Below the pieces are notes generated by a model. That model saw only the letters and a program-made list of their open reading frames with translations. It made no database searches and was not told the origin of the DNA. Source: Candidatus Altiarchaeota archaeon (lineage in GTDB: Archaea > Altiarchaeota > Altiarchaeia > IMC4 > SCGC-AAA252-I15). From it: DNA of 64,000 nt. The stretch lies in the NCBI GenBank assembly GCA_043800705.1, contig JAZDMS010000040.1, forward strand, positions 10,378-74,377, in the 5' to 3' direction. Within the stretch, counting starts at the first letter, position 1, and each line of letters opens with the position of its first letter. The translations under genes and the position numbers were made by a program. Positions 5,932 through 19,796 of the stretch are shown piece by piece.

Positions 5932-6633
5932 ATGGCTAAAGAAGCTCCCGGCCCGAATCCTATCCGGGTGTCGAAAGAACAGGTCATGTCCTTCTATGAA
6001 GCCATCCGGGAGGCCGAGTACATAGTGGCCTCGAGGAAGCCGGACTTCATAGTGGCTCCTCTGCGCGGAGCAGAGCCATTAATCGAGTCAATGGCCGTTG
6101 TCGCCGACCTGGAGGGGCGCGATATGCCCGAAGTCGTGTACATAGAGACCGGGACCATCGGCTCAAGGATTGACGGCAAGCCATTGCGGCCCCTCTTCCC
6201 GGAGGGAAAGGTCGCCCTGGTCTCGGAGAGGCTAGGCTCAAGATTTCGGGGAAAGGATGGGCGTCTGAGCATCTGTCTGGTCGACGAAGTCGAATCCGGC
6301 GGCTCCATTGTGAAGAACTTCGACTACGTGAATGGGGCGATGCGTCTTTACTACCCGAAGGTTGATTTCGATTTGTACGCCGTTGGCATATGCAGCAGAT
6401 CACGTGAGAAATGCGGCAGGTTCGTGCAGCTATTGGGGATGGGCAAGATCACACCACTCTATGTGGATGACCTCTTCACAGTCGACCGCACCCGGTTTCT
6501 TTCGCCATTGGTCCGGAAGGACGACGACGTCCGCCGGCAAGGATTATACCCCGGCGATTCCAAAAATGAACTCTACAACAATATTGAGCGGATTCACAGG
6601 GAGCTTCAGGACAGACATGGCAGCAAAAAGTAG
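5932..6633 (+). CDS. Hypothetical protein with phosphoribosyltransferase-like loop
   Basis: PDFIVAPLRGA and ICLVDEVESGGS resemble type I PRTase motifs. Confidence 0.55.
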   Translation: MAKEAPGPNPIRVSKEQVMSFYEAIREAEYIVASRKPDFIVAPLRGAEPLIESMAVVADLEGRDMPEVVYIETGTIGSRIDGKPLRPLFPEGKVALVSERLGSRFRGKDGRLSICLVDEVESGGSIVKNFDYVNGAMRLYYPKVDFDLYAVGICSRSREKCGRFVQLLGMGKITPLYVDDLFTVDRTRFLSPLVRKDDDVRRQGLYPGDSKNELYNNIERIHRELQDRHGSKK

Positions 6634-6634
6634 G

Positions 6635-7432
6635 ATGTTGTTAGATGCATACGGCATGCTTGAGCGGATACGCCTACGGAAGCCTCTCGTCCACCACATA
6701 ACCAACTGGGTCACCATCTACGACTGCGCCAACATCACCCGCACATTCGGAGCCCTGCCAGTCATGGCCCACGCCAGGGAAGAGGTCCAGGAGATGGTGG
6801 CCCTCGCCGGGGCCCTTGTGCTCAACATAGGCACCCTCACGCCAGAACTGATCGACACGATGGTCCTCGCAGGGAAGGCAGCCAACAAAAAAGGCATCCC
6901 CGTCGTACTGGACGCGGTCGGGGCAGGGGCGACACGGCTTCGGACAGACAGCGTCCTCAGGATGCTTAAGGCGTTCCGCATCGACGTATTGAAGGGCAAC
7001 TTTGGCGAAGTCGGCGTTATCGCTGGCGCAAAGGCCGAAGTCAGAGGCGTCGAGTCGATGGGCCTTGACGGGGATCCCGTAAGGCTGGCTAAAGGCCTAT
7101 CGTCGAAGCTGATGAACACGGTCGTGATGACCGGGAAGATGGACATCGTCTCAGGGGGCGGCAGGACATACCTCATAGACAACGGCACCGCTCAGATGGG
7201 CTCGATAGTAGGGACCGGCTGCATGGCAGCCTCCGTCATCGGCGCGTTCTGCGCCGTCGAAAAGGACTACCCGATGGCTTCAGCATCGGCATTGGCCTGC
7301 TACGGTATCGCAGGGGAACTGGCTGCGAAGGAGGCAAAGGGTCCGGGCTCGTTCAAAGAGGGATTCTACGACGCGGTGGCGTCCCTGGACAGAAGGCATG
7401 TGGACTCAATGGCGAAGGTATCGGAAAAATAG
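6635..7432 (+). CDS. thiM: Hydroxyethylthiazole kinase
   Basis: PLVHHITNWV, GALPVMA, LNIGTL, VLDAVG and GTGC motifs. Confidence 0.95.
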   Translation: MLLDAYGMLERIRLRKPLVHHITNWVTIYDCANITRTFGALPVMAHAREEVQEMVALAGALVLNIGTLTPELIDTMVLAGKAANKKGIPVVLDAVGAGATRLRTDSVLRMLKAFRIDVLKGNFGEVGVIAGAKAEVRGVESMGLDGDPVRLAKGLSSKLMNTVVMTGKMDIVSGGGRTYLIDNGTAQMGSIVGTGCMAASVIGAFCAVEKDYPMASASALACYGIAGELAAKEAKGPGSFKEGFYDAVASLDRRHVDSMAKVSEK

Positions 7433-7550
7433 ATGTCTCACCTGCCAAAAACGCGTCCTATCCATATTTTGCCCCCATATTGGCACTGACTTTACCTCAT
7501 CTTCTTGTATTGGGACATCCAAATGTAGTATAAGGAAAGGGTGAACTTAC

Positions 7551-7718
7551 ATGGACTCTGCAACCGCGCTTACAGGCCTGGTATATATGGCGACCGCGTA
7601 CATGATGGCGTATATTTTTTACCTCCTTTCAAGGGAGGCCGGGACCACCGGCATACTGGGTTTCCCGACTCAGCCTTACGACTCCAATCGCGTAATCCTC
7701 AGAAGAAGGTATATCTGA
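7551..7718 (+). CDS. Small membrane protein (55 aa; below the ORF-track cutoff)
   Basis: MDSATALTGLVYMATAYMMAYIFYLLSREAG...RRRYI*; GGGTGA Shine-Dalgarno-like site just upstream. Confidence 0.5.
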   Translation: MDSATALTGLVYMATAYMMAYIFYLLSREAGTTGILGFPTQPYDSNRVILRRRYI

Positions 7719-7745
7719 CTTAACCGCCCAAATGAAGCCGAATAA

Positions 7746-7774
7746 GGGGGCATGAGCGCCCACATCATGCCCCC
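7746..7774. terminator. Perfect 10-bp hairpin between convergent genes
   Basis: GGGGGCATGA-(9 nt)-TCATGCCCCC. Confidence 0.5.
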
Positions 7775-7796
7775 AAAAATCCGGTTTAATGGCCCC

Positions 7797-8705
7797 TTAA
7801 ACGCACTCCACGTCGGCCTTGCAGCCATTCACCCCAGGGGACCTGACCATGACGCATTTTCCGCCGACGCATTCGTTGTGCCTGCAGGACGAATCAGTCG
7901 TGCATCCGTCAATGCCCTTGCCATCAACCTTCCTGCAAAGCCCCCCCGAACATTCCGTGTGGTATTGATGTGCTGTTGTCGTCGGGGATCCGCGGCCGCT
8001 TTCTGCGAACTGCGTATCGTTAATCTTCGCCCCCGGGGTCGTCTTAATGGTCGACGAGTTCAGCACCAGCTGCCTGATGCATGCGCATGCCTGCGGGCTT
8101 CCCCTCCCATGGCAGCCCGAGCACCCTCCAAGATCGTATCCCCCCATGACTGCGACCTGGGTGTCCCATTCGCAGGTCGTGTTGTACAGGCACACCGCAA
8201 GCCTCCAGGCGGTTGGCGAGATCGAACAGACGCCGTCGGCTTTCGGGCAAATCCCGCCGATGTCGCATTCCTCTCCCTCATCCAGGATGCCGTTGCCGCA
8301 TGGCAGGGTCGACGTCGTGGTAGTAGACGTCACCTGCAGCGTGGTCGAAACCGCGGCAGGCAGGGCCGTAGCCTCCTCCGGGGGCAGGATATGGGACATG
8401 TTGAGTTTGCCATAACAGTACCTCACCCATGTCATGTTCCCCATCCTGTCGCACAATGAAAGGTCGGAAGCGTCTATGGCGAGATTGGTGAGGCACGCAA
8501 ACCTGAACTCGTCATCGTATTCCCCCTCGCATTGGCGGATCCTGGCATTATAACCCAACGTCGTCGACACAACCCCCCGGCTCATGCATTCCTCTGGCCC
8601 CTGCGCCTGCCTGCCGTCCGGGCATGTGTAAGTTTCAGTCCCGCCAAGGCAGCCGCACATAACGGCCAAGGCGACAATCAAGGGCAGATGGGCCGGTTGG
8701 CGCAT
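7797..8705 (-). CDS. Cys-rich secreted lipoprotein with Thr/Ser linker
   Basis: Signal peptide ending VMCGC, TYTCPDG, poly-Thr tract, CGNGILDEGEECD cysteine-rich repeat. Confidence 0.75.
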   Translation of the reverse strand: MRQPAHLPLIVALAVMCGCLGGTETYTCPDGRQAQGPEECMSRGVVSTTLGYNARIRQCEGEYDDEFRFACLTNLAIDASDLSLCDRMGNMTWVRYCYGKLNMSHILPPEEATALPAAVSTTLQVTSTTTTSTLPCGNGILDEGEECDIGGICPKADGVCSISPTAWRLAVCLYNTTCEWDTQVAVMGGYDLGGCSGCHGRGSPQACACIRQLVLNSSTIKTTPGAKINDTQFAESGRGSPTTTAHQYHTECSGGLCRKVDGKGIDGCTTDSSCRHNECVGGKCVMVRSPGVNGCKADVECV

Positions 8706-8756
8706 ACTAAATATTATCCCCGCCAACATAAATACTAGCACTTCGTGTCTTATCAT

Positions 8757-9365
8757 ATGCGCGGATTCTACTACATTACCGACTCGAAGATGTGCAGAAA
8801 ACCCGAGCAGGACGCGGTCAGGGCGGCGATCGAAGGCGGCGCCGCAGTCGTCCAATACCGTGAGAAGGAGCTGCCGGTCGAGGAAAGGATCCCCATTGCA
8901 AGGAAGCTGAGGCTCCTTTGCAGCGGCAGGGCCATATTCATAGTCAACGACGAAGTCGAAGTAGCCCAGGCATGCGACGCCGATGGTGTACACCTCGGAC
9001 AAGATGATATGAGCGTCAAGACCGCACGCTACCTCCTTGGAAAAGACCGGCTGATAGGCGTAACGGTGCATAACGTGCAAGAGGCAGTCGCAGCCGACCA
9101 GGCCGGCGCCGACTACGTCACAGTCTCGCCCGTGTTCGCCACCTCGACAAAGGCCGACGCCGGGCAGCCCGTCGGAATCCAGATGATAAAGGACGTAAAG
9201 GCCAAGGTGTTGATGCCGGTTGCCGCCATCGGCGGAATAGACGAAAATAACATAGACTCCGTCATCGCGGCAGGGGCCGACATGGCCTGCGCCATATCCG
9301 CCACCGTCTGCAAAGACGATATAAAGGCCGCAGTCAAATATTTCTCCACGAAATGGAAAAGATAG
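8757..9365 (+). CDS. thiE: Thiamine-phosphate synthase
   Basis: VVQYREK, FIVND, DGVHLGQDD, ATSTK and AIGGI motifs. Confidence 0.95.
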   Translation: MRGFYYITDSKMCRKPEQDAVRAAIEGGAAVVQYREKELPVEERIPIARKLRLLCSGRAIFIVNDEVEVAQACDADGVHLGQDDMSVKTARYLLGKDRLIGVTVHNVQEAVAADQAGADYVTVSPVFATSTKADAGQPVGIQMIKDVKAKVLMPVAAIGGIDENNIDSVIAAGADMACAISATVCKDDIKAAVKYFSTKWKR

Positions 9366-10876
9366 TCGTCCTCGACTTCGGAGGCCAGTACTGCCACCTC
9401 ATAGCACGGAGGATAAGGGAGCTTGGAGTCTACTCCGAGGTCATGGCCTCCGACACGTCCGCAAAGGAACTCAAGGCAACGGGCGGCCTCAAGGGTGTCA
9501 TCCTCTCCGGCGGAGCCGCATCCGTCTACGACGCAGGCAGCCCGAAATACTCCCCTGACCTACTCGAAGCCGGAGTCCCGATACTCGGCATCTGCTACGG
9601 CCACCAGCTGATAGCGCACATTGCGGGCGGATCCGTCGAAGGCGGGAAGGCCGGAGAATACGGGCTCACGGAGCTCGCAGTCATGAAGGCGGAAGGCATC
9701 CTGAAGGGGGTCAACGGCCGCACGCCGGTCTGGATGAACCACCGCGACGTAGTGACCAAACTCCCGCCCGCGTACAAGGTCCTGGCCACAACCGCGAACA
9801 CGCCTGTTGCGGCGTTCGGCAACCCTAAACAGAACATTCACGGCGTCCAATTCCACCCCGAGGTGACCCACACCCGCGAGGGGATGAGCATACTCGAGAA
9901 CTTCGTCGAGATATGCGGCGCAAGCCGCGACTGGAGCATGAAGGACTTCACCGTCAACTCCGTAGAGGAGGCGAAGTCGGTCATCGGCGGAAGGAGGGCG
10001 ATCATCGGCCTGTCCGGCGGAGTCGACTCGTCGGCCGCTGCGGTCCTCCTGTCACGGGCCATCGGCGACAGGCTCACGGCGGTCTACGTCGACACCGGCC
10101 TCATGCGCTACCGAGAGACCGAGTTCATGGAAGAGACCTTCTCGGGCAGGGAGATGGACTTCAGGATCGTCAGGGCCGCCGACAGGTTCTTCGCGGCATT
10201 GAAGGGCGTCACCGACCCCGAGCAGAAGAGGAAGATTATCGGGGGCCTGTTCGTAGACATATTCGAGGAGGAAGCCGTGAAAGTCGGCGCCGAAGTCCTC
10301 GTCCAAGGCACGATATACTCGGACCGGATAGAGTCCGGGGTCACCAAGCACTCGGACAACATCAAAAGCCACCACAACGTCGGCGGACTCAAGGAGAAGA
10401 TGAAGCTGGAAGTCTACGAGCCGCTCCGGGACCTGTACAAGGACGAGGTCCGCGAGATCGCAAGGCAGCTGAAGCTCCCGGAGAAGATAATCACAAGGCA
10501 CGTGTTCCCCGGCCCCGGCCTCGCCATAAGGATCATCGGAGAAGTCAACCCGAAGACGGCGGACATATGCAGGAAGGCGGGCAACATCGTCGAGGAGGAG
10601 CTGAAGAAGGCGGGAATCTACGAAAAATACTGGATGGGGTTCGCGGTCCTTCTGCCGATAAAGAGCGTCGGCATCCAGGGCGACTGCCGAAGCTACAAGC
10701 ACCCCGTCGTCGTGCGCATAATCGAGTCGAAGGACGCCATGACCGCCAACTTCAGCAAGGTCCCCTACGAGGTGTTGGAGTCCATATCGACGAGGATAAC
10801 GAACGAGATAGCCGACATCAACAGGGTCGTCTACGACATAACCAACAAGCCCCCAGCGACCATGGAATGGGAGTGA
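9353..10876 (+). CDS. guaA: GMP synthase (fused glutamine amidotransferase + ATP pyrophosphatase)
   Basis: LDFGGQY, GICYG, QFHPEV, SGGVDS, IKSHHNVGG, FPGPGL and KPPATMEWE motifs. Confidence 0.97.
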   Translation: MEKIVVLDFGGQYCHLIARRIRELGVYSEVMASDTSAKELKATGGLKGVILSGGAASVYDAGSPKYSPDLLEAGVPILGICYGHQLIAHIAGGSVEGGKAGEYGLTELAVMKAEGILKGVNGRTPVWMNHRDVVTKLPPAYKVLATTANTPVAAFGNPKQNIHGVQFHPEVTHTREGMSILENFVEICGASRDWSMKDFTVNSVEEAKSVIGGRRAIIGLSGGVDSSAAAVLLSRAIGDRLTAVYVDTGLMRYRETEFMEETFSGREMDFRIVRAADRFFAALKGVTDPEQKRKIIGGLFVDIFEEEAVKVGAEVLVQGTIYSDRIESGVTKHSDNIKSHHNVGGLKEKMKLEVYEPLRDLYKDEVREIARQLKLPEKIITRHVFPGPGLAIRIIGEVNPKTADICRKAGNIVEEELKKAGIYEKYWMGFAVLLPIKSVGIQGDCRSYKHPVVVRIIESKDAMTANFSKVPYEVLESISTRITNEIADINRVVYDITNKPPATMEWE

Positions 10877-10889
10877 CGGCGGTCCAAAC

Positions 10890-11630
10890 CTACAATACGA
10901 CACTCTCTTGGCCGCTGACCCATCTGGCTATCTCCTGCGGGCTCGCATGTTCTATCTGGTGCATCCTGACGTCCGCCGCCGACTTGAGAAGCTGGAACAG
11001 GATTAGAAGCAGGGTCGGGCCTGCCATGCTCAGATAGTCCGCCGTGCTCCCCAGTCCAACGAGATACAAGCCCATGGACAGAAAGATCCCGCCGACGTAG
11101 ATAAAACCCGAGGCGATTATGGTCAGGTGCATGGGCAAAATCCTGGCGAACGGGATTGCAGCCACGACCCCTATGTTCAACCTTTTTGAGCTATCCTCCC
11201 TGACATTGTGTATGTAGGAGAATCCGTGGTTGACGAGGAATATTGCCACGGCCAGGAGCATCCACGGAATCTCCCCCGACAGGATCCGGTATCCCATATC
11301 ACTCAAGGCAAAGAGCAGGAATACGGCGTAGGCGGCATGGAAAAATCCGAATCCGATAATAAAAATGACGGTCACCCAGGCTTTCACGGCCGATGAAGGG
11401 GTCAACGGCAGGCCGTTTATCTCCACCCCTTCGGTGGAATAATCCCCGAGGCTGAGCATCCTAAGTAGGCTGAATAGCCCGATGATGAGGCTCTGGCACC
11501 AGTAAACCCACAGGACCGTCATCAGGTTCCAACCCTCCAAGACAGCCAGCAGAATCACGAACAGATTAGAGGCTGCAAGCGACACTGCCGAAGGATCAGA
11601 CCATGCACTCTTCGCCGCCGCCTCAGGCAT
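10890..11630 (-). CDS. Multi-pass membrane protein (DUF6498-like)
   Basis: LAASNL...GW..VLWVYW, FGFFH, PFARILPMHLTII pattern. Confidence 0.7.
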   Translation of the reverse strand: MPEAAAKSAWSDPSAVSLAASNLFVILLAVLEGWNLMTVLWVYWCQSLIIGLFSLLRMLSLGDYSTEGVEINGLPLTPSSAVKAWVTVIFIIGFGFFHAAYAVFLLFALSDMGYRILSGEIPWMLLAVAIFLVNHGFSYIHNVREDSSKRLNIGVVAAIPFARILPMHLTIIASGFIYVGGIFLSMGLYLVGLGSTADYLSMAGPTLLLILFQLLKSAADVRMHQIEHASPQEIARWVSGQESVVL

Positions 11631-11682
11631 AGCCTATATCTGACTGCAGTGATAATAAACCCTCAAACAAAGTAACTATGCT

Positions 11683-11778
11683 ATGAGAATCCGCGACATC
11701 GGCGGCGAATTCACGCTAATCAACCGACTCGTATACGACATAACCAATAAACCCCCCGCGACCATGGGGTGGGCGTGA
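11683..11778 (+). pseudogene. Chimeric remnant: thiL 5' end fused in frame to guaA 3' end
   Basis: MRIRDIGGEFTLIN-RLVYDITNKPPATMGWA* versus ThiL MKIKDIGGEFALIN and GuaA INRVVYDITNKPPATMEWE*. Confidence 0.85.
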
Positions 11779-11781
11779 ACG

Positions 11782-12975
11782 TCAAAGCCCGGTTATTCTG
11801 TATCTGATATTCTTTCCGGCAGTTCCGTAACCCGCTTCGAATTCCAGCCTAGCCTCTTTATCCAGGTATCTGCCGGATATAATCCCTTTATCCTGCCATT
11901 GCGTGCCATTACCCTCAGCATCGAAGGAGACCGCGTAGTCATACTCTCCCCCCTTTACCCCACCGCAGCCGGGCCCTGAAGCCATCCCGTTCAACTGGAA
12001 TACCATAGTCTTTGTGAACCTGACTACGGGCTTCTCGGCGAGATCCTGGTCCAGGAAAGTTCCCTCAGGCATCATATCCCCGTAGCCCCTACCGCCAGTA
12101 ATCCCCTGGTTCTGGGGCGGGTCCATGTCGACCCCATCCATCATCAAATTAGTTATCCTGCAATCGACTCCGTTCTTTGAGATTTTAAGGGTTGACCCGT
12201 CCAACTCCCCCTCTTCCCCCCCAAACACCAGGGTGAATACCGATTTGTCCGGCTCCGATGAGCCGAAGAAGGAAATGGGCGCGATAGCCAGCCTATCGAA
12301 ACCGTCGACCCTTACGACCTCCGTCGGATTCAGGGGGCTGAGACCCGTCACGGATGAAAAAGCGAGCAGGAAAAAGATTGATGCCCCAAACAGCATCCCC
12401 CCCGGAATCAGCCAACATAGGACAGCCTTAATAGCGCTCATCCTGCAGGTCTGACGAAGGATAAGCGTCAGCAGATAGAATGAAAAAATATGCGGGATAT
12501 AGCTTACGACGATAGCCCCCATTCCAAAGACCGGCGATATGACCCTCTCCAAAATCCCCTGGATCAACGGCTGCACAACAGCGGCGATGAGGATATAAAC
12601 CGGGAAATAAACCGACGCCATCATATAATAGAGCTCAGTGAACGTGCATCTTCCGCCAAGGATCCGTGCGACAAGATACTCCCCTCCTGCAAAAATGAAC
12701 GAGGCAATGAGGCCCATGATGGGATACCCGACCAGGCAGAAGATGAACATGAGGCCTACGATCACAAGGGGGCTCCCGGTTGCCAGCATCATGAGGGGCA
12801 GGGCAAACGCAGCAAACAATGACGCAATAAGGACGACTTCCACGCCTCTCGTCATGGATGCCCGAGGCAGCTGCCTGGAAATCAGGGCGGAGGGGTTTTT
12901 AAACAAAAGAACGGCTTTTTCGCGGAACCTCAATTCCACGCTCAAATCATTTGCAGAAACCGGCTCACCTTCCAC
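11782..12975 (-). CDS. Yip1-like membrane protein with extracellular C-terminal domain
   Basis: About 5 TM segments with ARILGG..F, followed by a soluble domain with paired Cys. Confidence 0.65.
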   Translation of the reverse strand: MEGEPVSANDLSVELRFREKAVLLFKNPSALISRQLPRASMTRGVEVVLIASLFAAFALPLMMLATGSPLVIVGLMFIFCLVGYPIMGLIASFIFAGGEYLVARILGGRCTFTELYYMMASVYFPVYILIAAVVQPLIQGILERVISPVFGMGAIVVSYIPHIFSFYLLTLILRQTCRMSAIKAVLCWLIPGGMLFGASIFFLLAFSSVTGLSPLNPTEVVRVDGFDRLAIAPISFFGSSEPDKSVFTLVFGGEEGELDGSTLKISKNGVDCRITNLMMDGVDMDPPQNQGITGGRGYGDMMPEGTFLDQDLAEKPVVRFTKTMVFQLNGMASGPGCGGVKGGEYDYAVSFDAEGNGTQWQDKGIISGRYLDKEARLEFEAGYGTAGKNIRYRITGL

Positions 12976-13040
12976 TGAATAATCTATCTGCGGGAATCCC
13001 TTAAATAATCCCTATATCATCCGATCCGTCAGAACAAGGA

Positions 13041-13072
13041 TCAGCAAAGTCCGGTACGAAGTGTTGGCGTCC
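13041..13072 (+). repeat. Diverged fragment of guaA 3' region
   Basis: 27/32 nt identical to 10752-10783; SKVRYEVLAS versus SKVPYEVLES. Confidence 0.7.
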
Positions 13073-13078
13073 CTCACA

Positions 13079-13729
13079 TTATTCCGATCGCCTGCAGTAT
13101 CCGGTCACACAATACAGGTTGCCTATCTTTTTGACTTCATGACTGGGGAAGCCGCTTTCCGCCATCAACGAATCCACGCGGCTTCTACTGTAGAAATATA
13201 CTTCACACCCTCCCAGCATCAGCCTCGTCTTTCTGATAGGTGCCCTCCAGGTCATCAGCCTGGGAAAAGATAAAACGACCACGTCCCCTGTCGCATCCCG
13301 CATCTTCTTGAGTAATGGCAGAGGCTCCTTAACGTAGTCGAATAATCCCATGCCTATGCACGCATCGAATTTCTCTGCGCCAACGTAGGCGTCTAGGCTC
13401 GAATGTATGAAACTGCATCTGTCATCAACGCCGTTTTCCCGGGCGTTTCTCCTGGAAAGCCTTACCATGTTTTCCGATATGTCCAGGCCGACCACGCGCA
13501 GGGCTCCGTGTCTTGCGGCTTCCACGCTGTACTTCCCGCTTCCGCATCCCACGTCAAGAACAGTTTTCCCCTCCAATGGCCGGATCTTTCCCATCGCATA
13601 CTCGAATCGCCCGTACATGTCTGCCCTGAAGATGCGGTCGATCAGGTTCGACAACGCCGACTTATCGTGAGAATAAATCTTCTGGAACGACTCCGACTCG
13701 CTATTCCAATATTCCCTTTGGGTTTTCAC
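13079..13729 (-). CDS. Class I SAM-dependent methyltransferase
   Basis: VLDVGCGSG, VVGLDIS and FD motifs; likely GTG start overlaps the upstream stop. Confidence 0.85.
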   Translation of the reverse strand: MKTQREYWNSESESFQKIYSHDKSALSNLIDRIFRADMYGRFEYAMGKIRPLEGKTVLDVGCGSGKYSVEAARHGALRVVGLDISENMVRLSRRNARENGVDDRCSFIHSSLDAYVGAEKFDACIGMGLFDYVKEPLPLLKKMRDATGDVVVLSFPRLMTWRAPIRKTRLMLGGCEVYFYSRSRVDSLMAESGFPSHEVKKIGNLYCVTGYCRRSE

Positions 13730-14547
13730 AGCTCTAGACCCTCCCTTATGCAAGTGAACCTGAAATCATCTAAAAGGCGCTCAAGCCGCCCGCGAGTCCC
13801 CCCGAGATTGCGGTAATGCCTGAACCTCTTGGTTAAGGGCAGTTCCACGCGAGGCTGCCCGGGATCGAGCTCCCAGGGATGTATATAAAAGACTACTGGC
13901 CGGCCATTATTATTGCAATTCCTGATACAGTACCTTGTATAGGCATACGGGAATATGCGGAAGTAGCCGCCGCCGCTGCAAGGCAGCCGCATGCCGAAAA
14001 ACTCCGCGCAGGAGAGCGGGAATTCGGTTATTCCGGCGGATATCTTGTACGGCTTAAGCGGCGCATCGGGCACGCCATAATCCGGATGGAAAGAGATAGG
14101 AAAAACTGACGAGTCATACTTGAGCCCATATTCCTCCAACACCTCCAACGCCCAAAAAGTCTCCGGTTTTAGCGTGAATGAGGGAGCCCGGTACCCCAGG
14201 ATTTTCTGTTTAACGCCGCAGTCCCTGACGCAGTCCAAGGCCTTCCCGACGTCTATCCTAAATTCTTCCTTATCCATCTGGCTCAACAGTGAATGGCCGT
14301 ATCCGTGAATCCCTATCTCATGGCCGGCCTCGTCTATCTTCCGGATCAGATCAGGTACACGCTCCGCAATCCATCCCAAAACGAAGAAAGTGGCCTTAAC
14401 CTTGTGGATTTCGAGCAGATCAAGTATCTGGTTTAACCCAATCCCGACTCTCAACTCGCATGAGTCCCAATTGCGTCTGTCGATGACCCGGCTGAGATTG
14501 CTGACGCAAAACCAATCCTCCACATCCACGGAAAAATAATTCAACAT
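13726..14547 (-). CDS. Polysaccharide deacetylase (DUF3473-type)
   Basis: SVDVEDW, ATFFVLG, HEIGIHGYGH, GYRAPSF, YDSS, GGGYFR and YIHPWE motifs. Confidence 0.9.
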   Translation of the reverse strand: MLNYFSVDVEDWFCVSNLSRVIDRRNWDSCELRVGIGLNQILDLLEIHKVKATFFVLGWIAERVPDLIRKIDEAGHEIGIHGYGHSLLSQMDKEEFRIDVGKALDCVRDCGVKQKILGYRAPSFTLKPETFWALEVLEEYGLKYDSSVFPISFHPDYGVPDAPLKPYKISAGITEFPLSCAEFFGMRLPCSGGGYFRIFPYAYTRYCIRNCNNNGRPVVFYIHPWELDPGQPRVELPLTKRFRHYRNLGGTRGRLERLLDDFRFTCIREGLEL

Positions 14548-14683
14548 ATGCCGGTATAGTATTACCCCGCAGGATAAAAAATCTCCAGCTTAAAAACCGC
14601 CCTCAAACGGGGGATTGATGCGTCGGATCCTTAGGCGACGACGCTCTTGACACATATGAAGCCAACGGAATACGATAGAACGA

Positions 14684-15280
14684 TCAGGCATCCTTCTCGA
14701 TGCCGTCGGCTATATCGCATAATACGTTGATCATCTCAGCCATCCTCTTTGGCTCGTAGATTATCCTCCGGCTCTTGAATAAAATCTCCCCCTGTTCTGT
14801 CGATACCTCATCCCTGCTGTGAATCATCAATCTTTTCAGCCTGGATTCCACCGAATCGGTAAACACTCTGGCAGCTTTTGACTTGTCGGGCGCATAAATG
14901 TTCAATTCCCCGTTTTTCCCCTCGCCTCTTTTTACGAGAAAATTGTCGCTCTCACCCTCGTATGCCGCATATACCCATGTCGCATACCTCTCGATCAATC
15001 CTTTCCTTTCGAGTCGCACCCCCGCTTGTCTCCCCCTCACCTCGAAATCCACGCATGTTCCCGGATTCCATCCATCTGGTATTTCGCACCCCAGTTCCTC
15101 TGAAAGCTCCCTCAGCACCCTCTGAAACCTTGGTTTGGTGCTGATCTCATACCACATATACGGTTGGCTGCCGCTCAGCAGTATCATGCCCCCCTTCGGG
15201 CCGATCAAACGGGCGACTAACAGCATAAAGGCTGCGAAAGCTAACAGGATAATGGACGCCAGAGAAGAACTAATCTCCAT
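14684..15280 (-). CDS. Hypothetical protein with N-terminal membrane anchor
   Basis: 198-aa ORF with hydrophobic N-terminus. Confidence 0.6.
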   Translation of the reverse strand: MEISSSLASIILLAFAAFMLLVARLIGPKGGMILLSGSQPYMWYEISTKPRFQRVLRELSEELGCEIPDGWNPGTCVDFEVRGRQAGVRLERKGLIERYATWVYAAYEGESDNFLVKRGEGKNGELNIYAPDKSKAARVFTDSVESRLKRLMIHSRDEVSTEQGEILFKSRRIIYEPKRMAEMINVLCDIADGIEKDA

Positions 15281-15319
15281 GGTGTTTTATTCATCTCAGT
15301 ACAATAAATGCAAGATAAC

Positions 15320-16264
15320 ATGAAAATCAAGGACATAGGCGGCGAGTTCGCCCTCATCAACAGGGTTGCTCGGCCTGGCGGGGCGGTCGTCGGAGTAGGC
15401 GACGACGCGGCGGTCCTGAAGTATACGAAGGAGCGGTATCAGCTTTTCACGACCGACATGCTCTGCGACGGCGATCATTTCCGCCGCGACTGGGCCAGCC
15501 CCGAACAGATAGGGATGAAGGCGATGGAGGTCAACGTCTCAGACATCGCAGCAATGGGCGGCCTCCCCACATACGCTGTCATCTCAATATCACTGACACA
15601 TGACACGTCGGTCGAGTTCATGGACCGCCTCTACAAAGGCTTGTACCACGTCGCCGACAAATACGACCTCAACATCGTCGGCGGAGACACCACGCACGCG
15701 GACATGATGGTCATAAACGTCTCAATGCTCGGAGAAGTGGAAAAGGACAGATTATGCCTGCGCTCAGACGCGAAGGTCGGCGACCTCATATGCGTCACAG
15801 GCGACCTCGGAAAAAGCGCCGCAGGCCTCGAACTTTTGAAGGGGGGAATGCGCGGCGAGCTCACAGCGTATCTGGAGCCGAAATGCAGGCTAAAGGAGGC
15901 CAGGAAAATCTCACACTATGCAAACGCGATGATAGACGTCTCCGACGGCCTGGCAAGCGAAGTCAACCACATCTGCCATATGAGCAAGGTCGGGGGCCTC
16001 GTGAGAAAGGAGGACATACCCATATCCAAATCCACTATCGAATCCGCGCATAAGGTCGGCAAAGACCCGTACGATTACGCATTGAACGGGGGGGAAGACT
16101 TCGAGCTCGTGTTCACCGTCCCTCAAGCGTACCTGGGGAAGGTGGCGCACATAGATTGCCCGGTCACTGTCGTCGGAGAGATAGTGGAGAAAAGGCAGGG
16201 TTTGACGATTGAGTCGTGCGGCAGGAAAAAGCCCCTGAAGGGAGGATACGACCACTTCAAGTAG
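15320..16264 (+). CDS. thiL: Thiamine-monophosphate kinase
   Basis: GEFALI, GDDAA, NVSDIAAMG, GGDT, DVSDGL, GGEDFEL and GYDHF motifs. Confidence 0.95.
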   Translation: MKIKDIGGEFALINRVARPGGAVVGVGDDAAVLKYTKERYQLFTTDMLCDGDHFRRDWASPEQIGMKAMEVNVSDIAAMGGLPTYAVISISLTHDTSVEFMDRLYKGLYHVADKYDLNIVGGDTTHADMMVINVSMLGEVEKDRLCLRSDAKVGDLICVTGDLGKSAAGLELLKGGMRGELTAYLEPKCRLKEARKISHYANAMIDVSDGLASEVNHICHMSKVGGLVRKEDIPISKSTIESAHKVGKDPYDYALNGGEDFELVFTVPQAYLGKVAHIDCPVTVVGEIVEKRQGLTIESCGRKKPLKGGYDHFK

Positions 16265-17900
16265 GTGTTTGGTTGAAGCGGAAAACCGCCATGGCCGGAT
16301 ATTCTCCCATTTCCACGCGCTCGTATTCGACGCTGTCCTTCATCATTTTCTCCAGTGTGGCGATGTCGACCTGATTTTTCGGAGCTAAACCGGATTCTAA
16401 CGACACGTAAGCCGGATCATACGATCTTAACAGAGCCAGTCCGCCCTCAGGTTTCCACTCCCAATTCCTCAGGATGATTTGATCGCATTTTGCGCCATTT
16501 CGGAACCGGAAAAGGGCTGAATAATACTTTGCCTCCTGAGCCCGATAATCGTATCCGAAGATCTCGACAATCCTCATAGTACCGTTCGCCTGAAGGCCGC
16601 AGGCTTTCTCCATGAATCCCATAAGCTGCTCTTTATCGCTGTCGTGCGTCTGCAGCCCATTGAGGAAGGCTGTCCCGTCAGGTTTCCCCGCCAAACTGAA
16701 AGCCCACGAATCCACAAGGAGCAACTGTAATGTTAGGAGCGCTAAGGCGGCAAGCGCGAAAGTTCTCGCATACTTGTCTGCCCGGCTTAAAATCCAACAG
16801 GAAACGACTGCGAAATATGGAAGTAGTGGGAGTAGGAATCTCGGGAACTCGTTGGTGGAAAAGGAAAAGACCAGATAAAACAGGATTATCTGAAAAATCG
16901 AGGCCATCAAATATATGTCCCACGATTTGAATCCCTTTTTCACCGTGATCCATGCGAGAGCAAAAGGGGCGAAGATGAACATTGCGATCGTGAAGCCTGT
17001 TGTCAGGTTCACCCCCGATATCCCGGCCAATATCTGGAGCTTGCTGATGACATCCGCCCTATGCCCCCATCGGGGGGATGTTGCGGAAGAAACCGCGTGG
17101 CCCCAGGCCGGGCCGATGTGTAAATAGAACCAGGCGGACGCCGACGCCGCCAAAACCAAGGCTGCGAACGCCAAGAGCGGGTTCAACTTCGCGAAGCCAA
17201 AGCCTTTCCCTCGGATTCTGGCCAACACTAGGGCCGCGGGCCCGATGCAGTAAAGGGGGGAGGACAGTTTCGAGAGGGCTCCTATGGATGCGGCTGCCAA
17301 AATGCTTGCAAGGATCGTTGCCTTGTCCATGGAGGCTGCACGGACCATAATCCTCATGAACAGGGTCACCGACAGGAGGACGAAGACGTCAGAGTAATAC
17401 TGCCCCGACATTGCGACGAATATCGGCGCGGCAGCGATAACGGCGCAGCCCGCAAGGGAGATGAGACGGTTGAAGTACATGGACTTCAGCGTTCCAAACA
17501 TGATCCCAAGGGTCAGAACCTGCACAAGGAAGACCGGCAGCCGAAGGCCGAACTCCATCGATTTCGTCAACAATCCAAGCGGGACGAAAAACTGCCCGAC
17601 CCAAATCATCAAAGGCGGCTTATATGGGGATATTTGAAAAACCAAAGACAGCCAATTTTTGGGGTTGCTTTTTAGCTCCGAATAGAGCCTCAAAGACTCT
17701 TCGGCGTAGTCGAGGCAGTCGCCACTCGGAAGTTTGGCGTCTAGGGCTATCCACACCAGACTCGGAGCCGCAAGAAGCAGGATGAAAAGGACAGCATATG
17801 TGTCCCCTCCTGCACGGAGACTTTTCAGCCGAGATTCCGGCAGCATCCAAGGTAATCTATTTTCGATGAATAATAATCGTTTTAAAAATGCCAGCCTCAT
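16257..17900 (-). CDS. Membrane glycosyltransferase (GT-C fold, ArnT/PMT-like)
   Basis: D..Y early loop, YKPPL, R-P, many TM helices, PRFLLPLLP. Confidence 0.75.
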   Translation of the reverse strand: MRLAFLKRLLFIENRLPWMLPESRLKSLRAGGDTYAVLFILLLAAPSLVWIALDAKLPSGDCLDYAEESLRLYSELKSNPKNWLSLVFQISPYKPPLMIWVGQFFVPLGLLTKSMEFGLRLPVFLVQVLTLGIMFGTLKSMYFNRLISLAGCAVIAAAPIFVAMSGQYYSDVFVLLSVTLFMRIMVRAASMDKATILASILAAASIGALSKLSSPLYCIGPAALVLARIRGKGFGFAKLNPLLAFAALVLAASASAWFYLHIGPAWGHAVSSATSPRWGHRADVISKLQILAGISGVNLTTGFTIAMFIFAPFALAWITVKKGFKSWDIYLMASIFQIILFYLVFSFSTNEFPRFLLPLLPYFAVVSCWILSRADKYARTFALAALALLTLQLLLVDSWAFSLAGKPDGTAFLNGLQTHDSDKEQLMGFMEKACGLQANGTMRIVEIFGYDYRAQEAKYYSALFRFRNGAKCDQIILRNWEWKPEGGLALLRSYDPAYVSLESGLAPKNQVDIATLEKMMKDSVEYERVEMGEYPAMAVFRFNQTPT

Positions 17901-17943
17901 GGCAATTCCACCGATTATATACTCCTTCGACAAATATCCCTTT

Positions 17944-18669
17944 ATGGTAGTGAACATCGTCGTGACCGGCAAGGTCCCTGACAATCCAACCATCATCGAA
18001 GCGTTCCCGAGCAGGGGATACGTCAGCACCATAGCAGGCAACCACCTCATCCGCCAGGAGAAGATGGAACAGATCGGCTACATAGAGTCCGACAAGCTCG
18101 ACGCCATCGCAGTCGTCCACGACGGCAAGCCCATGCACCCCATACGGATATACTCGAAGGGCGACCTGGTCGTCCTGTTCTCCGAGCTGATAATCCCCCT
18201 CAACCTCACACACGAGTTCAGCACCGAAGTCATAAACTGGTTCAAGAAGATCAAGCCGAAGAAGGCGATCCTCCTGGCAAGCATCCCCGGGGTCGAGACC
18301 AGCAAGGAGCATGAGATATTGGCCGTGTCCACCGACGGGCAGATGATCGAGAAGATCAAGGCGTTGAAGATCAAGCAGATGAACGAGGGCGTCCTCACCG
18401 GGATGAGCTCGAGCCTGATGATAAAATGCTGCTGCTTAGAAATACCAGTCACGTCTCTGATGGTGGAGACGACCTACATACCCGACGTGCTCGCGGCGGC
18501 GAGCCTCATGAAGATGCTAAGCGACATCCTCGGCCTTACCGTCAGCATAGAGGAGCTAACGAAGGCGGGCCACGACATCGAGGAGAAGTTCCGCGAAAAC
18601 CTCGAACAGATGAAGATCGGCCAGGAAAACTTCAAAGAGATGCACCAACAATTGCCAATGTACAGATAG
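17944..18669 (+). CDS. Proteasome assembly chaperone (PAC2 family)
   Basis: IIEAFPSRGYVSTIAG, PMHPIRIY, GVLTGM, PD..AA; C-terminal HbYX motif (MYR). Confidence 0.85.
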   Translation: MVVNIVVTGKVPDNPTIIEAFPSRGYVSTIAGNHLIRQEKMEQIGYIESDKLDAIAVVHDGKPMHPIRIYSKGDLVVLFSELIIPLNLTHEFSTEVINWFKKIKPKKAILLASIPGVETSKEHEILAVSTDGQMIEKIKALKIKQMNEGVLTGMSSSLMIKCCCLEIPVTSLMVETTYIPDVLAAASLMKMLSDILGLTVSIEELTKAGHDIEEKFRENLEQMKIGQENFKEMHQQLPMYR

Positions 18670-18809
18670 CGGTCTTCCGTCTATCGCCCTGGCAAACGGT
18701 CCCGTCTTGGGCCTTGTTTGCGGCATGGGCTTGTTGCGGCGTCAGCCATCCATCAGAGAGACTGAGGCCTGAGGCCGAATGTCTCTCATTCGCCGGCCTT
18801 AGAAGGCCG

Positions 18810-18857
18810 CAGGAGAACTTCAAGGAAATGCACCAGCAGCTGCCGATGTACCGCTGA
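18810..18857 (+). repeat. Synonymously diverged copy of the last 15 codons and stop of the PAC2 gene
   Basis: QENFKEMHQQLPMYR* is encoded at both 18622-18669 and 18810-18857. Confidence 0.9.
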
Positions 18858-18914
18858 CCCCATGAACCGGCCGGGGCGCTGTCTTTATTTTCCTGTCCTC
18901 GTCGAATATGTATT

Positions 18915-19796
18915 ATGGCCTCCGAAGACAACCAACAAAAACTTACCCCCTTGCGGGAAACATCATCCCCCGCCTTGCCGCTGACAATGGGGCCCCTTGA
19001 GGCGACAAGCCTGTATTTCCGGGATGTCATGATGCGGATTGACTCCCTAAAGCTTAGGCATGAGGTTCTGAAGCTCGGTGAAGTCACCCACTCCCACAAG
19101 ACCTACCCCCTGTATGCGATAAAATCTGGAAGCCGTATGCCGGATGCCCCGAATGTCATAATCTGCGCGGGCATCCACGGGGATGAAAAGGCAGGGGTGC
19201 AGGCGGCGCTGGACTTCATGGAACAACACCATTCCCCATACTCCGGCAGGCTCAATTTCACCGTCATCCCCTGCATGAACCCATCGGGCTTCGAGGCAAC
19301 GACCCGGGCATCAGCGTCTGGCACCGACATAAACCGCGACTTTGGCGAATCAAGCAGAACCCAGGAGGCCACATTGGTTCGCAGGTTCATAGAGGGAGAA
19401 AGCGCGAAATTCGTCCTCGGATGCACCCTGCATGAGGATAACAGCGAACTATCAGCCGGAGGCCGCCCATTGACCGACAACCCCGATGGATTCTACCTGT
19501 ACGAGTACCGGTCTAACGCATCAGGGAGCCTTGGCAGGGGAATTCTCGCGGATCTGGAGGGAAAAGGGGTCAGCGTCTACAAGAAGCCGATGATATACTC
19601 GGAAAAAAATGACCACGGCATGGTCCTCGAGGTAGGGCCCATGGACCCCAAGAGGCCGGATTCAGCCTCATTTGAGAACTTTCTCCGAAGGTGCGCAGCC
19701 TGTGTCATAAACACCGAGACACCAACCTCGTGGTCATGGGACTCAAGGGTCAAAGCGCAAATCCTCGGGATAAAGTCGGCCTTAGACCGACAATAG
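18915..19796 (+). CDS. M14 zinc carboxypeptidase / succinylglutamate desuccinylase family protein
   Basis: AGIHGDE, MNPSG, DINRDF, LHED and ETP motifs. Confidence 0.85.
   Translation: MASEDNQQKLTPLRETSSPALPLTMGPLEATSLYFRDVMMRIDSLKLRHEVLKLGEVTHSHKTYPLYAIKSGSRMPDAPNVIICAGIHGDEKAGVQAALDFMEQHHSPYSGRLNFTVIPCMNPSGFEATTRASASGTDINRDFGESSRTQEATLVRRFIEGESAKFVLGCTLHEDNSELSAGGRPLTDNPDGFYLYEYRSNASGSLGRGILADLEGKGVSVYKKPMIYSEKNDHGMVLEVGPMDPKRPDSASFENFLRRCAACVINTETPTSWSWDSRVKAQILGIKSALDRQ

Follow-up and report, generated by a model that had tools for sequence, protein, structure and literature searches.

How does a stack of unrelated accessory genes come to lie between two essential genes that both remain unbroken, when no dedicated recombinase is in sight? 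The guaA-thiL interval of an uncultivated Candidatus Altiarchaeota archaeon raises this question, and we examined it within a window of 64,000 nt (GenBank assembly GCA_043800705.1, contig JAZDMS010000040.1). Many prokaryotic hot spots of gene gain carry neither integrase nor transposase, and most of what is said about their growth is deduced by indirect means. In the present case the joints can still be read, and they point to repeated gene addition with both neighbours preserved and no dedicated recombinase; the locus preserves a legible record of the growth of a gene island in which no integrase is visible.

The live guaA gene, encoding a GMP synthase of 507 aa, occupies positions 9353-10876 of the plus strand, behind thiE (8745-9365, plus), and the live thiL gene, encoding thiamine-monophosphate kinase, begins with an ATG at 15320 and runs to 16264 on the same strand. 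Gene calls and Pfam searches confirmed the reading of an earlier note on this DNA that four minus-strand units separate the two plus-strand genes; the intervening 4,443 nt hold five genes. Unit 1 (10890-11630) encodes a DUF6498 membrane protein (E = 1.6e-38), and its stop lies 13 nt beyond that of the live guaA. Unit 2 (11782-12975) encodes a Yip1-like membrane protein that carries an additional domain at its C-terminus, for which the Pfam Yip1 model gave just 21.7 bits, under the 28.6 cut-off, and for which Atlas structure matches led to Yip1 clusters; its start is uncertain, being either the GTG at 12975 or the ATG at 12855 used in the Atlas record. Unit 3 (13079-14547) consists of a SAM methyltransferase gene (13079-13753) and a deacetylase gene with DUF3473 and Polysacc_deac_1 domains (13726-14547), which overlap by 28 nt. 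Unit 4 (14684-15280) encodes a 198-aa protein without a Pfam family, which matched only itself in a search of 5.8 billion proteins, and whose Atlas model is similar to membrane-anchored proteins of bacteria that are DUF3137/DUF3156-like; a spacer of 39 nt separates this unit from thiL. The live guaA was kept intact despite the adjoining insert, and its last 18 residues, with the C-terminus NRVVYDITNKPPATMEWE, are the same in four relatives.

In all of the relatives that have both genes on one contig (4/4), the site is empty: the two genes either share 4 nt (G003) or are separated by 5, 23 or 2 nt (G001, G006 and G016, respectively), and thiE is found just upstream of guaA in three of these four. 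Two of the four congeners were uninformative, one (G002) with thiL on a 2.7-kb contig that lacks guaA and the other (G004) without a thiL orthologue. None of the relatives was seen to carry the same four-unit block. The nearest thiL had 74% protein identity; a metagenome scan with thiL and 10 kb of flanking DNA gave 34 loci, the best at 63% identity and none of them close kin, and a contig scan with guaA gave 79 loci, in which thiL adjoins guaA on only two contigs, equal in length to those of G001 and G006, while guaA is cut off by the contig end on two more contigs of Altiarchaeota type.

The cassettes themselves are accessory, absent from the congeners and mutually unrelated. DUF6498 was present in one of the 20 other genomes of the family, the 198-aa and Yip1-like proteins in none of the 48 other genomes of the order, and the deacetylase in nine of these 48, at no more than 45% identity, and in none of the four congeners. 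The relatives of DUF6498 (in G015 and on the assembly's own contig C37) and those of the deacetylase (in genus g8) had no guaA, thiL or methyltransferase neighbours, and viral contigs searched with DUF6498 and the Yip1-like protein held no relative of either. Comparing the cassettes pairwise gave no protein match below E = 0.9 and no DNA repeat.

What separates the units is more telling. The earlier note proposed that each of the three internal gaps holds a relic of the guaA 3' end, the thiL 5' end or both, and this is secure for gaps 1 and 2 and only probable for gap 3. Gap 1 carries a chimeric scar at 11683-11778 (plus strand), a mini-ORF of 31 codons (MRIRDIGGEFTLINRLVYDITNKPPATMGWA*), in which positions 11683-11724 correspond to thiL nt 1-42 (33/42 matching) and positions 11719-11778 to the last 60 nt of guaA, including the stop codon (50/60 matching). 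The two pieces are fused in frame at ATCAAC, and their order, thiL start and then guaA end, is the reverse of the native one. In gap 2, a relic at 13041-13072 (plus strand) corresponds to guaA nt 1400-1431 of 1524 (27/32), that is, to positions -125 to -93, with no overlap with the guaA piece of gap 1 (-60 to stop). The probable relic of gap 3, at 14621-14671 (plus strand), corresponds to thiL nt 69-120 with 38 matches, 9 mismatches and 3 indels, and its frame is broken. Unit 3 has the guaA relic to its left and the probable thiL relic to its right. All relics are short (32-60 nt), lie in direct orientation and derive from within 125 nt of the junction.

Against dinucleotide-shuffled controls, a comparison of the kind that the earlier note had proposed, none of 300 shuffles reached any of the four relic scores. 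This test is liberal, as gap 2 also matched an internal 24-nt stretch of thiL at a score likewise reached by 0/300 shuffles. As a second control we used 2,462 termini of other genes from the same genome, on either strand. The numbers of these that reached the observed score (for the gap 1 guaA, gap 1 thiL, gap 2 guaA and gap 3 thiL relics, in this order) were 0, 0, 0 and 3 under strict scoring, 0, 0, 0 and 29 without gaps, and 0, 1, 1 and 25 under +5/-4 scoring; with cheap gaps, the ends of other genes matched gap 3 as well as thiL did or better. By the terminus control, therefore, both gap 1 relics and the gap 2 relic are secure, and the statistically weak gap 3 relic is only probable. Possible extensions of the relics (12840-13040, 14548-14625, 15200-15319 and 10877-10930) aligned with guaA and thiL no better than shuffled sequence. 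Two further guaA matches, at 13052-13201 (reverse strand) and 13952-14101, were rejected as chance; they are long and gappy, involve the 5' part of the gene and fail strict scoring.

The anatomy of gap 1 is the one expected if one complete interval from guaA end to thiL start precedes another, and the gap is best read as the head-to-tail joint of two such intervals. Both units beside it retain flanks resembling those of an original junction, with the relic of the thiL ATG 52 nt past the DUF6498 start and the Yip1-like stop 3 nt beyond the stop of the scar's guaA relic. The joint sits at a short microhomology (ATCAAC) between otherwise unrelated sequences, where both proteins read I-N-R-V/L; the thiL piece of the scar has INRL here, like congener G001. 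At the corresponding position, live guaA contains a 12-nt word, CATCAACAGGGT (10816-10827, plus strand), that recurs in live thiL at 15355-15366; such sharing was reached by one of 300 shuffles and is found in this genome only, the four relatives sharing just 6-9 nt.

A thiL-start::guaA-end chimera is also the classic joint of a tandem duplication, and a duplication of the full island by crossover at the 12-nt word, followed by reciprocal loss of units 2-4 from the left copy and of unit 1 from the right, has in its favour the presence of that direct repeat in this very genome and the resemblance of the relics to the lineage's own sequence. The spacers upstream of the scar's ATG and of the live thiL ATG show a similarity that would fit as well, though it is weak and non-significant and adds no score. 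We nevertheless consider this history unlikely: the two sides of the joint hold unrelated content, the native-like flanks of 52 and 3 nt could be restored only by a pair of deletions ending at highly specific places, and the scar deviates from the 12-nt word at three of the five nucleotides that follow ATCAAC.

Whose gene ends do the spacers preserve? The gap 2 relic carries the EVLES codons specific to this genome's guaA, sharing the V and S codons that occur in none of four outgroups. Of 16 differences between relic and live gene, 14 are derived on the relic side; these 14 are distributed 3/4/7 over the codon positions and affect, among others, residues invariant in five genomes. The relics thus look like descendants of this lineage's own genes that decayed neutrally after displacement, and nothing in them requires a foreign donor. 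The codon-position bias of the differences in the gap 1 relic (2/2/6) is not significant (binomial estimate, p ~0.08) and gives no indication of a foreign functional donor.

The relics had also been described as standing at different levels of decay, which holds for truncation (gap 2) and indels (gap 3) and not for substitutions, which amount to 16-21% relative to the live gene in all four. Substitution levels consequently give no age ranking, and with divergence so alike, a burst or a single complex event fits equally well. One such event would be a repair at a broken fork or double-strand break, with template switches interleaving foreign DNA with the guaA and thiL ends, to which the short, directly oriented relics from close to the junction and the one joint at a microhomology would also conform. 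To this account we give little credence, since the units are complete genes, neatly bounded at stop and start codons and each preceded by a promoter-like box, and since the assembly contains no further copy of any cassette above 41% protein identity. It is very improbable that the array is an artefact in which the assembler strung together strain variants of a variable guaA-X-thiL locus. The assembly is fragmented and partial (43 contigs, 87.6% complete), and strains differing here would turn the locus into a graph bubble; against this, the relics are 16-21% removed from the live ends, truncated and interrupted by indels, no second guaA or thiL copy occurs on another contig, and exact overlap at the joint is just 6-12 nt, far under usual assembly word sizes.

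No enzyme that could have built the array was apparent at the locus. Pfam scans of 33 ORFs of the window returned no integrase or transposase, and the single PF00589 match in the whole assembly lies on contig C17 and not at the array; the missing part of this 87.6%-complete, 43-contig assembly could hold an integrase. A tRNA scan of the window and an Rfam search at E <= 0.1 over 6000-19000 gave nothing, and a repeat search over 9300-16400 found no family common to the cassette ends and nothing attC-like, the only repeats between gaps being the guaA and thiL relics themselves. These results bear on the idea that elements equipped with a replacement end integrated repeatedly and site-specifically at the 3' end of guaA, and that the integrases and the greater part of the element genes were lost later. 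In bacteria this gene end is a proven target, GIsul2 integrating at GAGTGGGA by the account in PMC9376610; the live guaA with a 60-nt downstream copy reaching the stop resembles an attL/attR pair, and successive integrations that push older ones inward are part of the description of tycheposons (bioRxiv 10.1101/2020.12.28.424599). We regard this history as quite unlikely, given that neither the island nor the window yielded an integrase and the assembly just one PF00589 gene, that the non-overlapping gap 1 and gap 2 relics leave no common att core, that targeting of guaA does not predict thiL 5' relics, and that the units are single genes without an element backbone.

Every unit is equipped with a TATA-like box of its own, 21-37 nt before its first start codon, as scored against the archaeal TATA consensus. 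That of DUF6498, ATAATAAA, lies at 11652-11659 (22-29 nt upstream of the start), unit 3 has a single box upstream of the deacetylase (14573-14582), and that of unit 4 is at 15301-15309. All units are co-oriented, each preceded by such a predicted promoter-like box. The GC content of the island is 52.2% vs 55.4% in the genome, with the cassettes at the 10th-31st percentile; composition, not being an outlier, is therefore uninformative on origin.

Taken together, we think it probable that the island arose by stepwise, recombinase-independent accretion through illegitimate or homology-anchored recombination, the old gene terminus being pushed inward at each step. The relics, the place of the joint, the vacant site in the relatives, the lack of an integrase and the unrelatedness of the cassettes are what we observed; the order of events, the enzymology and the source of the incoming DNA, which we take to be another allele of the same lineage, are what we infer for this history. 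The ancestor would have had a tight thiE-guaA-thiL operon, at whose guaA/thiL junction promoter-bearing accessory units would have been added by illegitimate recombination on no fewer than three separate occasions and without a dedicated recombinase, each event sparing guaA and thiL and leaving a copy of the old terminus inside the growing island. The earlier note's proposal that guaA-X-thiL alleles were concatenated one after another survives in part in this form, supported by the anatomy of the gap 1 joint, the relics flanking unit 3 and the empty site in 4/4 relatives.

The simplest such history would be growth from the inside out. The methyltransferase-deacetylase unit would at first have stood alone between guaA and thiL; the 198-aa gene would then have joined on the thiL side, displacing the old thiL 5' end inward (gap 3), and the Yip1-like gene on the guaA side, displacing the old guaA 3' end (gap 2, truncated later). 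Finally, a complete interval of guaA end, DUF6498 and thiL start would have been placed head to tail before the rest, by a crossover of thiL at about +42 with guaA at about -60 at the in-frame microhomology, giving the chimeric mini-ORF of gap 1. As no thiL piece is present in gap 2 and no guaA piece in gap 3, two of the three joints need extra deletions or extragenic joints. Each step would have proceeded through a one-sided homologous anchor with an illegitimate joint (homology-facilitated illegitimate recombination), through single-crossover integration of a circle carrying a short piece of flanking gene, or through unequal crossover between chromosome copies of differing content. We know of neither DNA uptake nor homology-facilitated illegitimate recombination in Altiarchaeota.

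A like architecture occurs elsewhere in the genome, where the start of an aminoacyl-tRNA synthetase gene has left a 34-nt relic, followed by an antisense Fic gene and then the live synthetase gene. Duplicated stretches of the neighbouring gene terminus, 27-155 nt long, also enclose eight of the 12 copies of two small hairpin elements. It is conceivable, if speculative, that Altiarchaeota and perhaps other uncultivated lineages possess a general, recombinase-independent mode of insertion at gene borders in which 30-155 nt of the neighbouring terminus are duplicated. Such a mode would act on small hairpin elements and promoter-gene cassettes alike, and could transfer units of gene end, cassette and next gene start from one chromosome copy or cell to another. 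Of its recorded products the guaA-thiL stack would then be the largest, and the chimeric mini-ORF would be a trace left by an intermediate that was circular or arose by unequal crossover. Should the same process have made the many duplicated gene termini beside small inserts in this genus, it would constitute a distinct archaeal route of gene gain.

Among known systems, the array recalls integrons in its co-oriented single-gene cassettes stacked at one site. Integron cassettes are promoterless and expressed from a common promoter; here a predicted promoter-like box precedes each unit, the spacers derive from the genes on either flank, and no IntI, attI, attC or shared repeat was found, so that the earlier label of an integron-like array without attC or IntI is apt as a loose analogy only. 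The element e14 integrates in the 3' end of the E. coli icd gene and supplies a replacement gene end. As with e14 in icd and GIsul2 in guaA, the host gene here is intact and a displaced partial end lies beyond the inserted DNA, and the conserved last codons of guaA are, by the account in PMC9376610, a known target. Unlike in those cases, neither an integrase nor a shared att core was found, the inserts consist of single genes, the downstream gene too has its 5' end displaced, and the two termini are fused at one joint.

Successive integration at one site is described for tycheposons, with partial tRNAs scattered through Prochlorococcus islands (bioRxiv 10.1101/2020.12.28.424599), and tandem accretion for ICEs and IMEs (PMC5704250). 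As in the present array, each new insert displaces its predecessors inward, and incomplete copies of the target gene serve as spacers. Such stacks grow on one side, at a tRNA gene, by tyrosine or serine recombinases; growth here was apparently two-sided, between two protein genes and with no recombinase found. In tandem paralogues of Staphylococcus, the unit of evolution is given as running from the 3' part of one ORF across the spacer into the 5' part of its neighbour (PMC2568036). Recombination units there, as in the present case, have their limits within the flanking genes and not at gene borders; unequal crossover there takes place among paralogues, whereas guaA and thiL are unrelated and share only 12 nt. 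A parallel to the joint itself is the homology-facilitated illegitimate recombination of naturally transformable bacteria (de Vries & Wackernagel 2002 and others, via PMC6382021), for which the literature consulted gave no description of serial use at one locus. The process has experimental proof in bacteria; as summarized in that source, it combines one homologous anchor with a joint at a few bases of microhomology, matching the joint in gap 1.

The 4,443-nt interval between the plus-strand genes guaA (9353-10876; preceded by thiE, 8745-9365) and thiL (ATG 15320 to 16264) contains, in a source assembly of 43 contigs and 87.6% completeness, five minus-strand genes that form four units, as the earlier note had described. 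They are a DUF6498 gene (unit 1; 10890-11630); a gene for a membrane protein that is Yip1-like and has an additional C-terminal domain (unit 2; 11782-12975), whose Pfam match lies under the curated cut-off and for which Atlas structure rows indicate Yip1 clusters; a SAM methyltransferase gene (13079-13753) and a DUF3473/polysaccharide deacetylase gene (13726-14547), which overlap by 28 nt and together form unit 3; and a gene for a 198-aa protein without a family (unit 4; 14684-15280). It is uncertain where translation of the Yip1-like and 198-aa genes begins, as the Atlas records start at residues 41 and 19, respectively. Every unit carries, 21-37 nt 5' of its first start codon, an AT-rich box that we take to be TATA-like from the archaeal consensus, and the methyltransferase gene, which overlaps the deacetylase gene, has no such box of its own. 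The units resemble independent modules of promoter plus gene, and all of them run antisense to the interrupted operon. Their GC content (52.2%, vs 55.4% for the genome; 10th-31st percentile of genes) is slightly low, not aberrant. Elsewhere in the window, a 427-codon Cys-rich ORF without a Pfam family (7797-9080, minus strand) overlaps the start of thiE in antisense, and could either encode a genuine surface protein or be a shadow ORF.

We searched for thiL among 40 related genomes and compared the DNA beside 16 thiL genes. In 4/16, guaA precedes thiL, with the guaA stop and thiL start overlapping by 4 nt (G003) or lying 5, 23 and 2 nt apart (G001, G006 and G016, respectively); G003 and G001 belong to the same genus as this genome, G006 and G016 to a neighbouring one. 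Since the two genes are this close in four relatives, the 4.4-kb block is an insertion specific to this lineage, and an identical four-unit block was seen at none of the 16 loci. In the remaining 12, thiE directly abuts thiL in seven and is separated from it by other genes (ABC transporter, thiC) in three; neither thiE nor guaA was seen adjoining thiL in two, G014 and the congener G002, whose thiL lies on a 2.7-kb contig with a divergent neighbour. No thiL orthologue was found in the fourth congener, G004. In other genera of the family, the thiE-thiL junction likewise has insertions: an ABC transporter pair is inserted in G007 (locus L040) and G009 (L043), accompanied by further genes in G007, whose thiE is shorter than that of this genome by its last ~32 residues, and thiC is inserted in G022 (L042).

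The gaps between the units contain decayed copies of the flanking gene ends. In gap 1 (between units 1 and 2; 11631-11781), 42 nt match thiL from its ATG onward (33/42) and are joined, at ATCAAC, to 60 nt matching the guaA end including its stop (50/60); the fusion is in frame and yields a 31-codon ORF, MRIRDIGGEFTLINRLVYDITNKPPATMGWA. In gap 2 (units 2/3), a stretch of 32 nt corresponds to guaA nt 1400-1431 of 1524 (27/32); in gap 3 (units 3/4), ~51 nt correspond to thiL nt 69-120, the alignment having three indels. All four alignments are better than shuffled sequence (0/300 dinucleotide shuffles reaching each score), a test that is too lenient, as a 24-nt gap 2 match to an internal part of thiL also passed it. 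In a stricter control, using the real sequence of 2,462 termini of this genome's other genes on either strand, the scores of the gap 1 guaA, gap 1 thiL and gap 2 relics were reached by no terminus under strict or ungapped scoring and by 0, 1 and 1 under +5/-4 scoring, while 3 (strict), 29 (ungapped) and 25 (+5/-4) termini attained the score of the gap 3 relic; under cheap gaps, unrelated gene ends align to gap 3 equally well or better. Because of this control we regard the three relics of gaps 1 and 2 as secure copies of gene ends and that of gap 3 as a probable thiL copy. The observation made in the earlier note is confirmed. Extensions of the relics, and more relics inside the coding parts, were sought and none was found.

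Relic and live gene disagree in 17%, 21%, 16% and 19% of aligned columns, so that no substitution gradient is seen; the different levels of decay proposed earlier are confined to the truncation in gap 2 and the indels in gap 3. A divergence of 16-21% from the live ends also speaks against an assembly chimera, an unlikely explanation given that at most 12 nt are common at the joint and that other contigs hold no second guaA or thiL copy. Equal divergence would be consistent with a single complex repair event by template switching, which is inconsistent with the tidy gene-by-gene boundaries and which we consider very improbable. When relic-vs-live differences were polarised with guaA of four outgroups, 9/10 in gap 1 and 5/6 in gap 2 (one being a flanking base) were derived on the relic side, falling, for both guaA relics pooled, 3/4/7 at codon positions 1/2/3 and including V-to-L, E-to-G, E-to-A and P-to-R changes at residues invariant across five genomes. 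This pattern would be expected for the neutral decay of a dead copy. The gap 2 relic has the Val and Ser codons of EVLES in common with this genome's guaA only, so it derives from this lineage's gene as it was after the split from the sampled relatives. Nothing in these sequences requires a distant donor, and a conspecific one would be compatible.

The live guaA (10816-10827) and thiL (15355-15366) have in common, in frame, the word CATCAACAGGGT, which encodes I-N-R-V in both proteins and sits exactly at the thiL-to-guaA switch of the scar. A common word of that length was reached in 1/300 shuffles, and in four relatives the longest is just 6-9 nt, the chance level. It either arose first and promoted the crossover or came later via gene conversion from the scar; its guaA Ile codon is derived (Val in four relatives), possibly through such conversion. 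In the scar, 3/5 nt after ATCAAC deviate from the word and read N-R-L, like thiL of the congener G001, and so the true crossover point may be a few bases further along. Both gap 1 neighbours retain native-like outer flanks: the guaA stop is followed after 13 nt by the DUF6498 stop, the DUF6498 start after 52 nt by the ATG of the thiL relic, and the guaA relic stop after 3 nt by the Yip1-like stop. A chimera of thiL start and guaA end is the joint expected where two guaA-to-thiL intervals have been placed head to tail. The same joint would also result if the 12-nt repeat had mediated a tandem duplication and reciprocal loss had followed, which is improbable: two deletions would have to end at very particular points, and the two sides of the joint have nothing in common today. 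The serial joining of guaA-X-thiL intervals proposed in the earlier note fits gap 1 best and is compatible with the rest, where unit 3 has a guaA relic on its left and the probable thiL relic on its right; it is unproven.

The island genes are accessory. A DUF6498 relative (43% identity) occurs in 1/20 other genomes of the family, and a paralogue (33-41%) lies on contig C37 of this genome's assembly (G000). Deacetylase relatives of at most 45% identity occur in 9/48 other genomes of the order and in none of four congeners, and the 48 yielded neither the Yip1-like nor the 198-aa protein; among 5.8 billion proteins, the 198-aa protein matched itself only. No mutual relatedness was found among the five island proteins.

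Similar gene-terminus duplications occur elsewhere in the genome. Local repeat pairs (raw score >= 36, spacing 60-6,000 nt) number 435 direct vs 42 inverted; many direct pairs are paralogues or internal protein repeats, and several are gene-terminus duplications around inserts. At C20:19997-21109 (L113), a relic from the start of a class-I (Trp/Tyr) aminoacyl-tRNA synthetase gene (34 nt/14 codons) is followed by an antisense Fic-domain gene and the live synthetase gene, an arrangement that matches the series of thiL relic, 198-aa gene and thiL. Small hairpin elements form two families (9 and 3 copies), and 8/12 copies lie between duplicates of the neighbouring gene's end that are 27-155 nt long; two of these duplications (LeuA-like and PheRS-alpha 3' ends) are 100% identical. 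The first family (~60-70 nt; a CNGCCTT-N2-4-AAGGCNG hairpin, GCGAA, then a second variable hairpin) is found at C5:61070, C19:20105, C22:26487, C23:482 and 636, C25:29166 (window 18789-18809), C33:4114, C35:50130 and C42:25486; direct duplications of the adjoining terminus flank 6/9 copies, including an ABCE1/RLI 5' end (155 nt), the LeuA-like 3' end (67 nt, 100%) and a PAC2 3' end (42 nt). The second element (~125 nt; C33:12200-12324, C34:9325-9456 and C14:103857) terminates in ...GGGGGATCAGGGGTANCTTAGACCTGAGGGGGCGG(T)AGCCCCCGCGGGTC and is inserted immediately behind two stop codons, that of PheRS-alpha, with a duplication of 37 nt (100%), and that of a 99-aa ORF, with one of 51 nt (84%). The LeuA-like 3' end carries the hairpin insert and a duplicated end of 67, about 92 and 33 nt in G000 (L097, C33:2400-4700), G001 (L108) and G004 (L110), and is plain in G003 (L107) and G002 (L109); in G004, 4/4 differences between the copies are silent. 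ABCE1/RLI has, at C19:19950-20321 (L099), a second copy of its first 50 codons 5' of the live start, with a 62-nt hairpin element between; the upstream frame closes at a TAA one base ahead of the live ATG, and the 12 differences between the copies are nearly all synonymous. Silent-only differences are not predicted by neutral decay. The synthetase, hairpin-element and LeuA-like cases show that the genus has repeatedly undergone insertion with gene-terminus duplication; the island between guaA and thiL appears to be an instance with several events.

In the most economical history, the island would have grown from the inside outward. The methyltransferase-deacetylase unit would have arrived first; the 198-aa gene would then have been added on the thiL side, leaving the earlier thiL terminus inside, and the other side, next to guaA, would have gained the Yip1-like gene and later DUF6498 with a piece of thiL, every addition leaving the preceding gene terminus behind. 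Three routes would all yield this topology. One combines an illegitimate joint with homologous anchoring in the flanking gene, as in the homology-facilitated illegitimate recombination described in transformable bacteria (PMC6382021); another is the integration, by a single crossover, of a circle that includes a short piece of the flanking gene; the third is unequal crossover of chromosome copies.

No site-specific machinery is visible at the island. The single PF00589 gene of the assembly lies on another contig, none of the 33 window ORFs scanned is a transposase or integrase, tRNA and Rfam family searches found nothing, and the cassette ends have no repeat in common. Serial insertion by an integrase at the guaA end is well precedented: GIsul2 integrates at GAGTGGGA of guaA (PMC9376610), and tycheposon islands grow by successive integrations (bioRxiv 10.1101/2020.12.28.424599). 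Such insertion would call for an integrase, a single att core and the absence of thiL relics, and we think it improbable here. The likeness to an integron drawn in the earlier note does not extend to mechanism. Hot-spot accretion with displaced gene ends is of a known kind; what would be new here is that it is two-sided, apparently recombinase-free and archaeal.
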